A DNA stretch of 64,000 nucleotides, taken from contig JAGGWD010000005.1 of the NCBI GenBank assembly GCA_021157625.1, positions 2,118 through 66,117 of the forward strand, written 5' to 3'. Origin of the DNA: a bacterium. Lineage in GTDB: Bacteria; Patescibacteriota; Minisyncoccia; Minisyncoccales; JAGGXC01. The notes beneath the pieces are model-generated. The model was given only the letters and a program-made list of their open reading frames with translations. It was not told the origin of the DNA and searched no databases. This document shows, piece by piece, positions 28,434-62,797 of this stretch (the first letter of the stretch is position 1; the number at the start of each line of letters is the position of its first letter). The position numbers were made by a program, and so were the translations under genes.

Positions 28434-28545
28434 AATGGTAGATCAAAAAACAAAAAATCTGCTTCCGCAGACAAAAAACAACAAAAAAACTTAATTATCC
28501 TCGGCAGGTCTTATTTTAATGCCTGCTGTCTGCGGATAAAGACAA
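28434..28545 (-). promoter_or_regulatory. rplJ leader with mutually exclusive long-range stem and terminator hairpin (L10-leader-type attenuator candidate)
   Basis: Minus strand CCGCAGAC (28535->28528) can pair with GUCUGCGG (28472->28465). That second segment overlaps the hairpin UCUGC-GGAA-GCAGA (28471->28458), which is followed by U6. Confidence 0.55.
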
Positions 28546-28549
28546 TTCT

Positions 28550-28579
28550 ATTATAACCAAATCTTTATTGAGCTGTCAA
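28550..28579 (-). promoter_or_regulatory. Promoter candidate for rplJ-rplL
   Basis: Minus strand: TTGACA (28579->28574), 18 nt, TATAAT (28555->28550). Confidence 0.6.
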
Positions 28580-45163: not shown

Positions 45164-45560
45164 AAAGCCCAACTAGGCTGTAAGCCGAATTCTGTACTTT
45201 TTCGGTATTTCTACCGAAAAAGTGGTAATCATTTCTCTGGGCCAGCAATTGCTTGCTGGCTCATGCGAACTACTTTTTCTTTTCGACAAATCCGGAGATT
45301 GTCGAAAAGTTTGTTCTTGCACCCGATAAGGATTTAGCCGTTTCACCCCCGAGATTTCTCTCGGGACTTTCCAACAACTCAGAGAGTTGTCGGAACCTCG
45401 GCTCTTTCGAGCCTCGGCGTCTCTGTTCGCACCTCTGGCCTCACGACCGACGGCTGTTAGCCGCTATCTTTTTTCCTTTCCGAATGGAAAGGAGGGTGTT
45501 CGGACTTTCCTTTCCGATTCCAAAAGGAATCGGAACGATTACCTCACCTAGTTGGGCTTT
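45164..45560 (-). ncRNA. rnpB: RNase P RNA, bacterial type A
   Basis: Minus strand: P1 5' AAGCCCAACUAGG pairs with 3' CCUAGUUGGGCUU. Conserved GGAAAGGAAAGUCCGAACACC near the 5' end, GGGGGUGAAACGGC internally, and ACAGAAUUCGGCUUACAGCC near the 3' end. GC-rich island. Confidence 0.9.
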
Positions 45561-60884: not shown

Positions 60885-60910
60885 AAAAAAACAGCTTCAG
60901 TGCTGTTTTA
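60885..60910 (-). terminator. Intrinsic terminator after hpf
   Basis: Minus strand: AACAGC-ACUGAA-GCUGUU followed by U7. Confidence 0.6.
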
Positions 60911-60934: not shown

Positions 60935-61354
60935 TTATTTCTTTTTTGGAGAAGCGGGTGAAGAAATCTTTGTCATTTCTTTGAGCTTCCGGAAAGATTT
61001 TCTGGTCCGTATAATTTGTTTTTTCTTGTATTGCTTGAGTTCTCTTTGCAACTTATCCTTGAGTTCGGTAATGGCTGCAAGAAGATCATCTTTTAGCGAT
61101 TCCGCTCTTACACTCTTTCCAGGAAGTTTTATTTGGCATTCTGCCCGAAAAACATCTCCCTTGTAGTGATGATGGGTGGTTTTTTCTATCTCTACCCATC
61201 CTTCTAGAGCAGGCTTTGACTTTGAAGAAGAATCAAAATCCTTCCCTACTCTTGAGATTAACTTCTCTAACCCTCCTATTTTTTCTTTTATATAACTCCG
61301 AAGTGATGGTGTTAATTCCAAATTTGTAGCCTTTATATTTATTTTAAATCTCAT
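60935..61354 (-). CDS. hpf: Ribosome hibernation/associated factor (HPF/RaiA/YfiA family) with a basic C-terminal tail
   Basis: MRFKINIKATNLELTPSLRSYIKEKIGGLEK... (S30EA fold pattern). No SD is visible upstream. Confidence 0.85.
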   Translation of the reverse strand: MRFKINIKATNLELTPSLRSYIKEKIGGLEKLISRVGKDFDSSSKSKPALEGWVEIEKTTHHHYKGDVFRAECQIKLPGKSVRAESLKDDLLAAITELKDKLQRELKQYKKKQIIRTRKSFRKLKEMTKISSPASPKKK

Positions 61355-61444
61355 AAGATTTTTAAAAAATTACGCCCCCTTTGCACTACAAGATTCCAAA
61401 ACCTACCATATGAAATTCTGAAAGAAGGGGGCGAAAATTAAATT

Positions 61445-61519
61445 CTACTTCTTCTTTTTTTTCTTTTTCTTCTTTGCAGTTTTTTTCTTTTTTGTGGTCT
61501 TCTTTTTCTTCTTTGCCAT
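61445..61519 (-). CDS. Candidate 24-aa poly-lysine micro-ORF (MAKKKKKTTKKKKTAKKKKKKKKK), below the ORF-track size cut-off
   Basis: Minus strand: GGAGGG, 13 nt, ATG (61519). An in-frame TAA lies immediately upstream. TAG stop at 61447-61445. Confidence 0.4.
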   Translation of the reverse strand: MAKKKKKTTKKKKTAKKKKKKKKK

Positions 61520-61669
61520 TTATTTTTATATCCCTCCAGGAGTTTTTAAAACCTGGAAATTTTTATTTTGAATGCAAATAGTCGACCAGCCTATTTGCAA
61601 ATATTGATTTATTATTTTATTTTCGCACTTTAAAAACACCTGTCAAGGTGGATAACTCCAGACAAAAAA

Positions 61670-62554: not shown

Positions 62555-62571
62555 TAGAATGATAATTTACA

Positions 62572-62757
62572 CAAAAGGACCAGGGGAGTTGACTCCAATT
62601 CTAAGTCTTTCGGTGAGTGCTGGCCCCTGGTCCAATTTTTATTATACACTCCTAAAGCAATAAAGCAAGAAAAAAGTACTAGACCTTGCGCAAGGCAAGG
62701 TCTAGTACCGACTTTAGAATGGAGTCTCCGATTAAGAATCGGAGTCGCACTCACCAT
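62572..62757 (-). ncRNA. Unclassified structured RNA region (independent sRNA(s) or murB leader) with two terminator-like hairpins and internal long-range complementarity
   Basis: GC-rich island between a strong promoter and murB. The 13-bp hairpin 62708->62676 is followed by U6. The 10-bp stem GGACCAGGGG/CCCCUGGUCC (62633->62577) is followed by U4. Segments 62755->62747 and 62726->62710 are complementary to 62620->62612 and 62607->62591. Confidence 0.5.
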
Positions 62758-62762
62758 CTACA

Positions 62763-62791
62763 ATATTAGCAAAATTAAAATGTTCTGTCAA
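62763..62791 (-). promoter_or_regulatory. Strong promoter candidate driving the structured region and murB
   Basis: Minus strand: TTGACA (62791->62786), 17 nt, TAATAT (62768->62763). Confidence 0.6.
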
Positions 62792-62797
62792 GTGTCT

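Follow-up and report, generated by a model that had tools for sequence, protein, structure and literature searches.

Several very small and highly basic bacterial proteins that had been missed by annotation, among them bS22, bL37, bL38 and bTHX, later proved to be real components of the ribosome. The bS22 protein of Borrelia is about 30 amino acids long, consists of 61% Lys and Arg, was unannotated, and was observed alongside HPF in a hibernating 70S ribosome, where it binds an rRNA pocket formed by h2, h27, h44 and h45 as an analogue of eL41 and mS38 (PMC10618245). In gammaproteobacteria another small basic protein, RMF, works with a short-type HPF, and in the trpL, hisL, pheL and thrL attenuators a short open reading frame (ORF) dominated by one amino acid precedes a terminator directly upstream of a gene. 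Here we describe a locus that resembles each of these systems in part. It occupies positions 61355-61669 of a 64-kb stretch of DNA (the window) from a Parcubacteria-type bacterium of the candidate phyla radiation (CPR; the ultra-small Patescibacteria), a group with reduced ribosomes whose biochemistry is almost unstudied. Between murB (62554-61670) and an hpf/raiA-type gene (60935-61354), both on the minus strand like every feature of the locus described below, lies a micro-gene of 24 codons plus a stop codon (61445-61519; MAKKKKKTTKKKKTAKKKKKKKKK), with Lys at 18 of its 24 residues. Comparative analysis makes it probable, in our judgment, that this region is a real, translated and autonomous micro-gene and not only a leader or a spacer; for any specific molecular function of the peptide our confidence is much lower. 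Tiny, very basic, unannotated bacterial micro-proteins are known as such, and what would be new is an oligolysine ORF with a conserved leader RNA; no description of polylysine small ORFs or leaders of this kind was found in the literature searched.

A first-pass annotation of the window had listed six elements in this region (a TTGACA box, an inverted repeat, a hairpin overlapping a Shine-Dalgarno [SD]-like sequence, the ORF, a G+C-rich stem and the hpf start), and all six are present where it had placed them. It had proposed that the peptide is either a translation-sensing leader controlling hpf or a tiny ribosome-associated protein coexpressed with HPF, and that relatives should be examined for the micro-ORF and the stem. 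Both turned out to be conserved in diverged lineages. Loci on other contigs are designated below by L numbers; the relatives found through HPF are metagenome-assembled genomes of Patescibacteria labelled Nealsonbacteria, Parcubacteria or "Saccharibacteria". In all, M-[A/V/P]-K-rich ORFs of 12 to 33 amino acids recur in 14 diverged lineages, and in 11 of the related loci (L005, L006, L162, L007, L010, L011, L026, L009, L164, L168 and L025) such an ORF adjoins an hpf gene whose product is 38 to 74% identical to the one in the window. Four near-identical metagenome contigs also hold the region and differ at only two positions of the ORF, both AAA/AAG exchanges; one metagenome annotation (L003) had called the 24-amino-acid ORF as a gene.

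The composition of these ORFs is organized by reading frame. In nine orthologs with 208 codons in all, 181 codons begin with A, and pyrimidines and G are distributed over the three codon positions as 4/54/41 and 23/18/75, respectively. None of the nine contains an Asp or Glu codon, although GAA is one transition away from AAA. Where the Lys tract is interrupted, the interruption is always an in-frame ACN, GCN or AGY codon, and the third bases vary. The AUG-GCN/GUN start is conserved across the orthologs, and in all 14 lineages the stop codon follows immediately after the last Lys or Arg codon. Codon choice within the Lys tract is also unusual: AAA makes up 47% of the Lys codons of the micro-ORFs compared with 70 to 85% in neighboring genes, and AAG is overused in all 13 lineages tested. 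The longest run of A is only 5 to 8 nt where 11 to 16 nt would be expected (P ≤ 0.04 in 12 of the 13 lineages). For the window ORF itself the longest run is 8 nt, against 16 nt expected from the Lys codon usage of the genome (71% AAA), so that the description of this ORF in the first-pass annotation as rich in AAA/AAG runs holds for its Lys codons but not for runs of A. Taken together, the periodicity, the missing acidic codons, the position of the stop and the AAA/AAG usage show that the micro-ORF is under a frame-specific constraint that preserves it as a translatable, purely cationic ORF.

Ribosome sliding on poly(A) is generally reported for runs of about 11 or more A residues. The micro-ORFs share consecutive Lys codons with known polylysine/poly(A) stalling tracts but differ from them in being enriched in AAG and in keeping their A runs at 8 nt or below. 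Such a limit argues less for a stalling device than for accurate synthesis of a product or, at the least, for an intact frame, and the Lys tract looks as if it had been selected for faithful translation.

The same coding signatures bear on a reading in which the transcript of about 250 nt acts as an RNA, for example through its purine tract on pyrimidine-rich targets, and the ORF is incidental. A conserved promoter, a structured 5' part and a terminator would all suit a noncoding small RNA, purine tracts are free of stop codons in every frame, and the protein databases give no support to the peptide. Scans of the peptides against Pfam (E ≤ 0.01) and NCBIfam (E ≤ 10) returned no match, and a PDB sequence search with two of them (E ≤ 10) returned no chain; an exact look-up of 17 peptides in a collection of 15 billion protein sequences found none of them, no protein-level homology search having been made. 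A small RNA, however, does not account for G and pyrimidines that are strictly phased by 3 nt from the conserved AUG-GCN/GUN start, for the lack of GAR codons, for an in-frame stop exactly at the end of the tract in 14 of 14 orthologs, or for differences among orthologs that are of the synonymous type. Analogous ORFs in high-G+C DNA, described below, moreover have a perfect SD sequence at ideal spacing. We therefore regard a purely RNA-based function as very unlikely.

The arrangement of the unit around the ORF indicates that it does not depend on hpf. The usual, recurring gene order is murB, the unit, hpf and secA, but in L025 murB and hpf are only 15 nt apart, and a complete unit, made up of a promoter, a GGUCGA hairpin, the ORF MVKRKKAAKRKKAVPKKKKTTKKKTTRRRKKK and a terminator of its own, is located downstream of hpf and is followed by no gene. 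In L081, the unit, with the same kind of ORF and the same leader, stands between murB and other genes, with no hpf; in L089, a related ORF and its terminator precede secA, again with no hpf; and in L164, a GIY-YIG gene separates the unit from hpf. Since the unit occurs downstream of hpf and in loci without it, it is best seen as autonomous and not as an obligatory hpf leader.

These comparisons also address the simplest alternative, in which an A/G-rich spacer and some unrelated hairpins arose by chance in an AT-rich genome and the inverted repeat is an operator for a repressor of hpf. The G+C content of the genome is only about 30 to 37%, and the predicted fold of the 315-nt region as a whole is not exceptional (z = -0.76), as this alternative would lead one to expect, although individual subelements are. 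On the other hand, the ORF is the only one of at least 12 amino acids with at least 50% Lys in the 64-kb window, and it is conserved across lineages whose HPF proteins are only 38 to 74% identical. The chance-spacer reading is thus already contradicted by the comparative data, and we consider it extremely improbable; its operator component is taken up with the first leader hairpin below.

Transcription of the unit would start at a sigma-70-type promoter (61619-61646) composed of a -35 box TTGACA (61646-61641), a 16-nt spacer and a TG-extended -10 box GAAAAT (61624-61619), which together match the consensus at 10 of 12 positions. The first-pass annotation had located the TTGACA box correctly and called its -10 box weak; that qualification falls short, since TTGACA-16/17-GAAAAT is conserved in L005, L006, L162, L010, L164, L168 and L026 and occurs in a variant form in L011. 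In the window, the promoter is overlapped by a small hairpin, CACCU-UGAC-AGGUG followed by U5 (61650-61637), which is not conserved and could serve as a murB terminator.

Downstream of the promoter, a leader of about 95 nt contains two hairpins. The first (61573-61599; ΔG = -10.3, z = -2.9) has a 9-bp stem, UGCAAAUAG/CUAUUUGCA, and a 9-nt loop, GCUGGUCGA; its arms form a perfect 9-bp inverted repeat (61599-61591 and 61581-61573), and the motif GGUCGA at 61587-61582 is unique in the window. The repeat with its 9-nt spacer had been noted as operator-like. The repeat is real, but its variation is that of an RNA hairpin. When nine sequences are aligned, 94.6% of the cells pair, and compensatory changes are seen in two pairs. 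The one-sided changes are A-to-G substitutions, tolerated only where they give G.U on the sense strand of the ORF and A.C on the other strand. The loop ends in a motif, (G)GUCGR, that 12 lineages retain. L025 is one of them, although its stem is wholly different (GGUAAA/UUUACC), and its loop holds GGUCGA; the half-sites expected of an operator are not retained there. Because G.U pairs are restricted to the sense strand, changes are compensatory and the loop survives replacement of the stem, we rejected a DNA operator, and by the same comparisons the inverted repeat is an RNA hairpin on the sense strand of the ORF. The micro-gene is accompanied by a conserved leader RNA motif that is present in no database: a search of the region against Rfam at gathering and permissive thresholds identified no family, its best matches being at chance level (E = 5 and 7.5), and no tRNA or transfer-messenger RNA was found in the micro-gene region. 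A T-arm-like sequence, GGUUCGAGUC, hinted at a tRNA upstream of the ORF in L009, where a search found none.

The second hairpin (61533-61559; ΔG = -9.4, z = -4.1) consists of 8 bp, UUUCCAGG/CCUGGAGG, and an 11-nt loop, with the core CCAGG (61556-61552) and CCUGG (61540-61536) separated by 11 nt, as the first-pass annotation had described. It is fixed in position and not in sequence. It ends 10 to 17 nt before the AUG and pairs through at least six unrelated stems, among them CAGUUCAG/CUGAACUG (L007 and L010), UUAAAUAAU/AUUAUUUAA (L011), GCUCAGUAAAA/UUUUAUUGAGC (L164), CUCAAUAAAAA/UUUUUAUUGAG (L168) and GAACUUU/AAGUUC (L081), with z scores of -3 to -5 in most; it is absent from L025 and L026. 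This comparison is based on folds of the individual sequences, as the MAFFT alignment is out of register here. In the window, an SD-like GGAGGG (61537-61532) overlaps the 3' arm of the hairpin 12 to 13 nt before the AUG. The more distant orthologs do not retain it, and it is better read as part of the hairpin than as a working SD.

SD sequences are in any case little used in this organism. Of the 52 long ORFs of the window, whose starts are preceded by A-rich sequence, only 4 have an SD-like motif within 20 nt of the start codon. The anti-SD motif is reported to be absent from about half of Parcubacteria (PMC9297842), and the scarcity of SD motifs in the window is consistent with this reported loss; the organism is an SD-poor member of this group. 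We therefore dropped all arguments based on SD sequences, including one drawn from the lack of an SD before hpf, which the first-pass annotation had recorded correctly but which is normal here and uninformative.

Downstream of the ORF, two features recur. The first is a pyrimidine tract (61420-61431; CCCCCUUCUUUC), 13 nt past the stop codon in the window and complementary to AAG/AAA codons; it can pair with three AAAGAAG sites in the window ORF. A CUUCUU-like tract is present within 25 nt of the stop in all 11 orthologs examined: their longest pyrimidine runs there reach 6 nt or more and average 9.1 nt, whereas the average after 365 other stop codons, used as a control, is 4.85 nt, and 29% of these controls reach 6 nt. 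The second is a terminator-like element (61364-61433; ΔG = -21.4, z = -2.35). Its 9-bp G+C-rich stem, CGCCCCCUU (61433-61425) and AAGGGGGCG (61381-61373), which had been noted before and is confirmed here, begins 11 nt past the stop codon, encloses 43 nt that form an inner hairpin, and is followed by UAAUUUUUU, that is, UAA and U6 (61369-61364); the 9-mer CGCCCCCUU occurs nowhere else in the window. A G+C-rich stem with a U run is found 3' of the micro-ORF in every ortholog, as expected of an intrinsic terminator, the window form being atypical in its 43-nt interior, which is also why a simple terminator scan did not pick it up. The loop is large in L005, L006, L162, L007, L010 and L011 and compact in L168, L164, L009, L026, L025, L081 and L089.

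As a separate observation, a G+C-rich arm, CCCCGCCCUCUAAGCUC/...AUAGAGGGCGGGG, forms a long stem 3' of the micro-ORF in L011 and 3' of hpf in L025, and a half-copy is also present 3' of murB in L011. It may be a palindromic repeat of terminator type that is dispersed in these genomes.

The short distance from terminator to hpf constrains how hpf can be transcribed. The hpf ATG at 61354 lies 18 nt past the terminator stem, the corresponding distances in the window, L005 and L162 fall between 18 and 20 nt, and in L168 just 3 nt separate the ATG from the end of a compact terminator, GAGCACUCAA/UUGAGUGC with U7. The interval from the ORF to hpf yielded no convincing promoter either in the window or in L005, the window having only a weak extended -10 candidate (TGgTAGGTT, 61408-61400). 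In L007 (2893-2998) and L010 (1664-1762), by contrast, a near-consensus promoter, TTGAAA-15-TGcTATAAT, is located inside the terminator loop; transcripts from upstream would there form the full stem, while those from the nested promoter would hold its 3' arm only. Because hpf often starts 3 to 20 nt past the terminator, which leaves too little room for a promoter of its own, it would have to be expressed by read-through or from a nested promoter. The most economical arrangement, judged from these sequences, would be an operon of a small first gene and hpf with a partial terminator between them, which a nested promoter replaces or supplements in some lineages. The rplKAJL-rpoBC and rpsU-dnaG-rpoD operons offer a parallel, with a small, presumably highly expressed first gene and a terminator that has to be read through (as at the 3-nt interval of L168); they differ from L007 and L010, where a nested promoter may take the place of read-through.

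These same features invite comparison with amino acid attenuators. In such a scheme, the occupancy of the Lys ORF by ribosomes would decide between purine-pyrimidine pairing and the terminator, hpf transcription would report translational capacity or the supply of Lys-tRNA, and the peptide would be functionless. The likeness is closest in the window clade, where the ORF region is complementary to the 5' side of the terminator. There, 18 of 24 codons specify Lys, a stem with U6 follows from 11 nt past the stop, and the terminator shares its 5' arm in part with the pyrimidine tract, which can also pair with the three AAAGAAG sites; in addition, the tract is present past the stop in every ortholog examined, the position of hpf 3 to 20 nt past the terminator in L168, the window, L005 and L162 implies that read-through is needed, and a good promoter is lacking between ORF and hpf in the window and L005. 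The scheme does not extend to the orthologs, however. In L168, L164, L009, L025 and L026 the tract is separate from the terminator arm, so that no mutually exclusive pair of antiterminator and terminator is conserved, and the distance from stop to stem varies from 8 to 23 nt. A unit that lies downstream of hpf (L025), is found without hpf (L081 and L089) or, among the analogues described below, precedes a convergent gene leaves nothing in cis to attenuate. In L007 and L010 a promoter is nested in the loop, the avoidance of A runs is the opposite of what a stalling sensor would call for, and the duplex between ORF and tract in the window is no stronger than those of 8% of control 3' regions. 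Unlike the classical attenuators, the unit is followed by a gene outside the Lys pathway, and the composition, start and end of its peptide are conserved. We consider an attenuator unlikely, though it is the alternative with the most in its favor; if it were true, it would reveal a new coupling of hpf transcription to translational activity. Of the two proposals in the first-pass annotation, the translation-sensing leader that acts on hpf through the stem is accordingly disfavored, and the comparative data give partial support to a tiny protein expressed with HPF in its place.

We also rejected an arrest peptide of the SecM type acting on secA, because a signal sequence is lacking and both the hpf terminator and a near-consensus secA promoter intervene. 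The terminator (60885-60909) has the form AAAACAGC-ACUGAA-GCUGUUUU with a U run and is followed by the promoter TTGAAA-17-TATAAT (60876-60848).

Under the micro-gene reading, then, the events at the locus may be pictured as follows. The conserved TTGACA-16-TGnGAAAAT promoter would start a transcript of about 250 nt whose leader presents the GUCGR loop on its first hairpin. The 24-codon ORF would be translated into an oligolysine peptide, with codons that keep it purely cationic and avoid slippery A runs, and the pyrimidine tract and G+C-rich stem with its U run would stop most transcripts. HPF would be made from the fraction that reads through, the two genes then forming an operon whose internal terminator attenuates the second, or from transcripts that start at a weak promoter within the large loop. 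The peptide itself would be the functional entity, and the conserved leader hairpin would be a candidate site of feedback control. We infer from its composition and context that the peptide binds RNA, most plausibly rRNA or the ribosome, and such a polycation might be a functional analogue of bS22, eL41 or bTHX or a partner of the short-type HPF. A conserved, independently transcribed, near-pure-lysine gene ahead of the only hibernation factor would in this respect be a concrete candidate for a new ribosome- or RNA-associated factor.

The 139-amino-acid product of hpf matches PF02482 only (E = 3.8e-15), and its homologs are named RaiA or HPF. In the Pfam scan, it comprises an S30AE domain and a basic tail and lacks the C-terminal domain of long HPF, which makes it short-type, like the HPF that works with RMF. 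RMF (PF04957) is, however, a folded 55-amino-acid protein that is not encoded beside hpf; it has no similarity to the oligolysine peptide, for which the Pfam scan gave no PF04957 match. An RMF-like partnership, drawn by analogy from gene order, is speculative. The resemblance to bS22 (PF08213/DUF1713) lies in the very small size (about 24 to 33 amino acids), the extreme basicity and the fact that annotation usually misses it. But both the sequence and the length of bS22 are well conserved; the oligolysine ORFs, in contrast, are of low complexity and span 12 to 33 amino acids, and none of the Pfam, NCBIfam or PDB searches above, at their respective thresholds, assigned the peptides to bS22/DUF1713. 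As a control, the bS22 sequence of Mycobacterium smegmatis retrieved bS22 and mS38 chains only. The proposal of a ribosome-associated protein coexpressed with HPF thus remains the best fit to a conserved coding ORF that has its own promoter, leader and terminator and usually lies directly upstream of hpf, but it gains no sequence match to bS22, RMF or any entry of Pfam, NCBIfam or PDB. Ala/Lys-rich tails are also present on uS19 of Parcubacteria (PMC9297842).

Several observations weigh against a functional micro-protein. A cis-regulatory role, which is secondary in the account given here, is hinted at by the pyrimidine tract complementary to the ORF and by the very short distance from the terminator to hpf. 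In about 28 of the 40 HPF loci examined, no ORF of this kind lies within 3 kb, and the link to hpf is therefore confined to certain clades. Low-complexity purine tracts are open in all frames, and openness alone means little. The peptide is missing from the protein collection and without a Pfam, NCBIfam or PDB sequence match. Finally, its length (12 to 33 amino acids) and sequence vary much within the CPR, which would be unusual for the occupant of a defined rRNA pocket.

Similar ORFs are not confined to this group. Scanning metagenome contigs for ATG-GYN-(AAR)4-N3-9-(AAR)3 yielded at least 120 loci. Among the matches listed, about one-third are stand-alone K/R-rich ORFs of 12 to 45 amino acids in DNA of 28 to 72% G+C, and many of these have a near-perfect SD at ideal spacing, a recognizable promoter and a terminator. 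Recurrent families among them include MAKKKKAKKKSKS, which on alphaproteobacteria-like contigs has a conserved leader and a terminator to itself and is followed by a convergent gene; MAKKKKAAKKKSAKKKRH; and MAKKKKAAKKKKK, on contigs of about 70% G+C with a conserved 3' hairpin. No Rfam family was matched at these analogous loci. A search for HPF in the 120 listed M[AV]KKKK loci found none, while a control search recovered 40 in HPF loci; the broad class is therefore not linked to hpf, and the link is specific to this CPR group. Free-standing oligolysine micro-ORFs look like a general, unannotated phenomenon, within which low-complexity sequences do not distinguish homology from convergence. 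They seem to occur in unrelated phyla, some with culturable members, which makes the question accessible to experiment. A more far-reaching possibility is that these ORFs form a widespread, overlooked class of bacterial micro-proteins, encoded oligolysine peptides of 12 to 45 amino acids with an M-A/V-KKKK start. In the CPR, members in an operon with short-type HPF would act as an RMF-like hibernation cofactor or as a free-standing counter-ion "ribosomal protein" that offsets the reduced set of rRNA and proteins, with the GUCGR hairpin as autoregulatory site. We consider this improbable as a whole.

Two groups of these loci have further features. A conserved, free-standing ORF of 12 to 13 codons, MAKKKKAKKK(S/T)K(S), is shared by L108, L127, L129 and L158 (57 to 64% G+C), contigs that look alphaproteobacterial. 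It comes with a terminator of its own and a leader that is structured and conserved, and it is flanked by aroC/ribB-like genes on one side and a convergent histidine-phosphatase-like gene on the other. In L042, L058, L063 and L096 (67 to 72% G+C), a perfect SD, GAAAGGAGGUGA, precedes the ORF MAKKKKA[AT]KKKKK, and a conserved hairpin, GGUGGGGGG-UGGCGG-CCUCCCACC, whose variants are compensatory, lies 3' of the ORF. Two of these loci, L042 and L058, have another small K-rich ORF that stops about 40 nt before this one, as well as a RelA/SpoT-like gene in the vicinity.

The remainder of the window contains ordinary RNA features: the 5' part of a 23S rRNA gene at its edge (1-1220), with no 16S gene adjoining on that side, a class A RNase P RNA (45165-45555), an L10 leader (28443-28553) and four tRNAs. 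A further noncoding region, on the minus strand between a Wzy_C/TPR gene and murB (62555-62797), is highly structured (fold z = -5.4) and conserved; it has no Rfam match, shows 77 to 82% identity over about 215 nt in L162, L005 and L006, and remains alignable in its 3' part in L007, L010, L011, L026 and L009. It opens with TTGACA-17-TAATAT (62791-62763), from which an RNA of about 85 nt would extend to a 15-bp terminator with U6 (62709-62675), and is a candidate small RNA and/or murB leader. Further 3', it contains TTGCTT-16-TATAAT and a 10-bp G+C-rich stem, GGACCAGGGG...CCCCUGGUCC, followed by UUUU about 20 nt before the murB ATG. The layout upstream of murB is thus the same as that upstream of hpf, with a large-loop stem and a U run just before the start codon.

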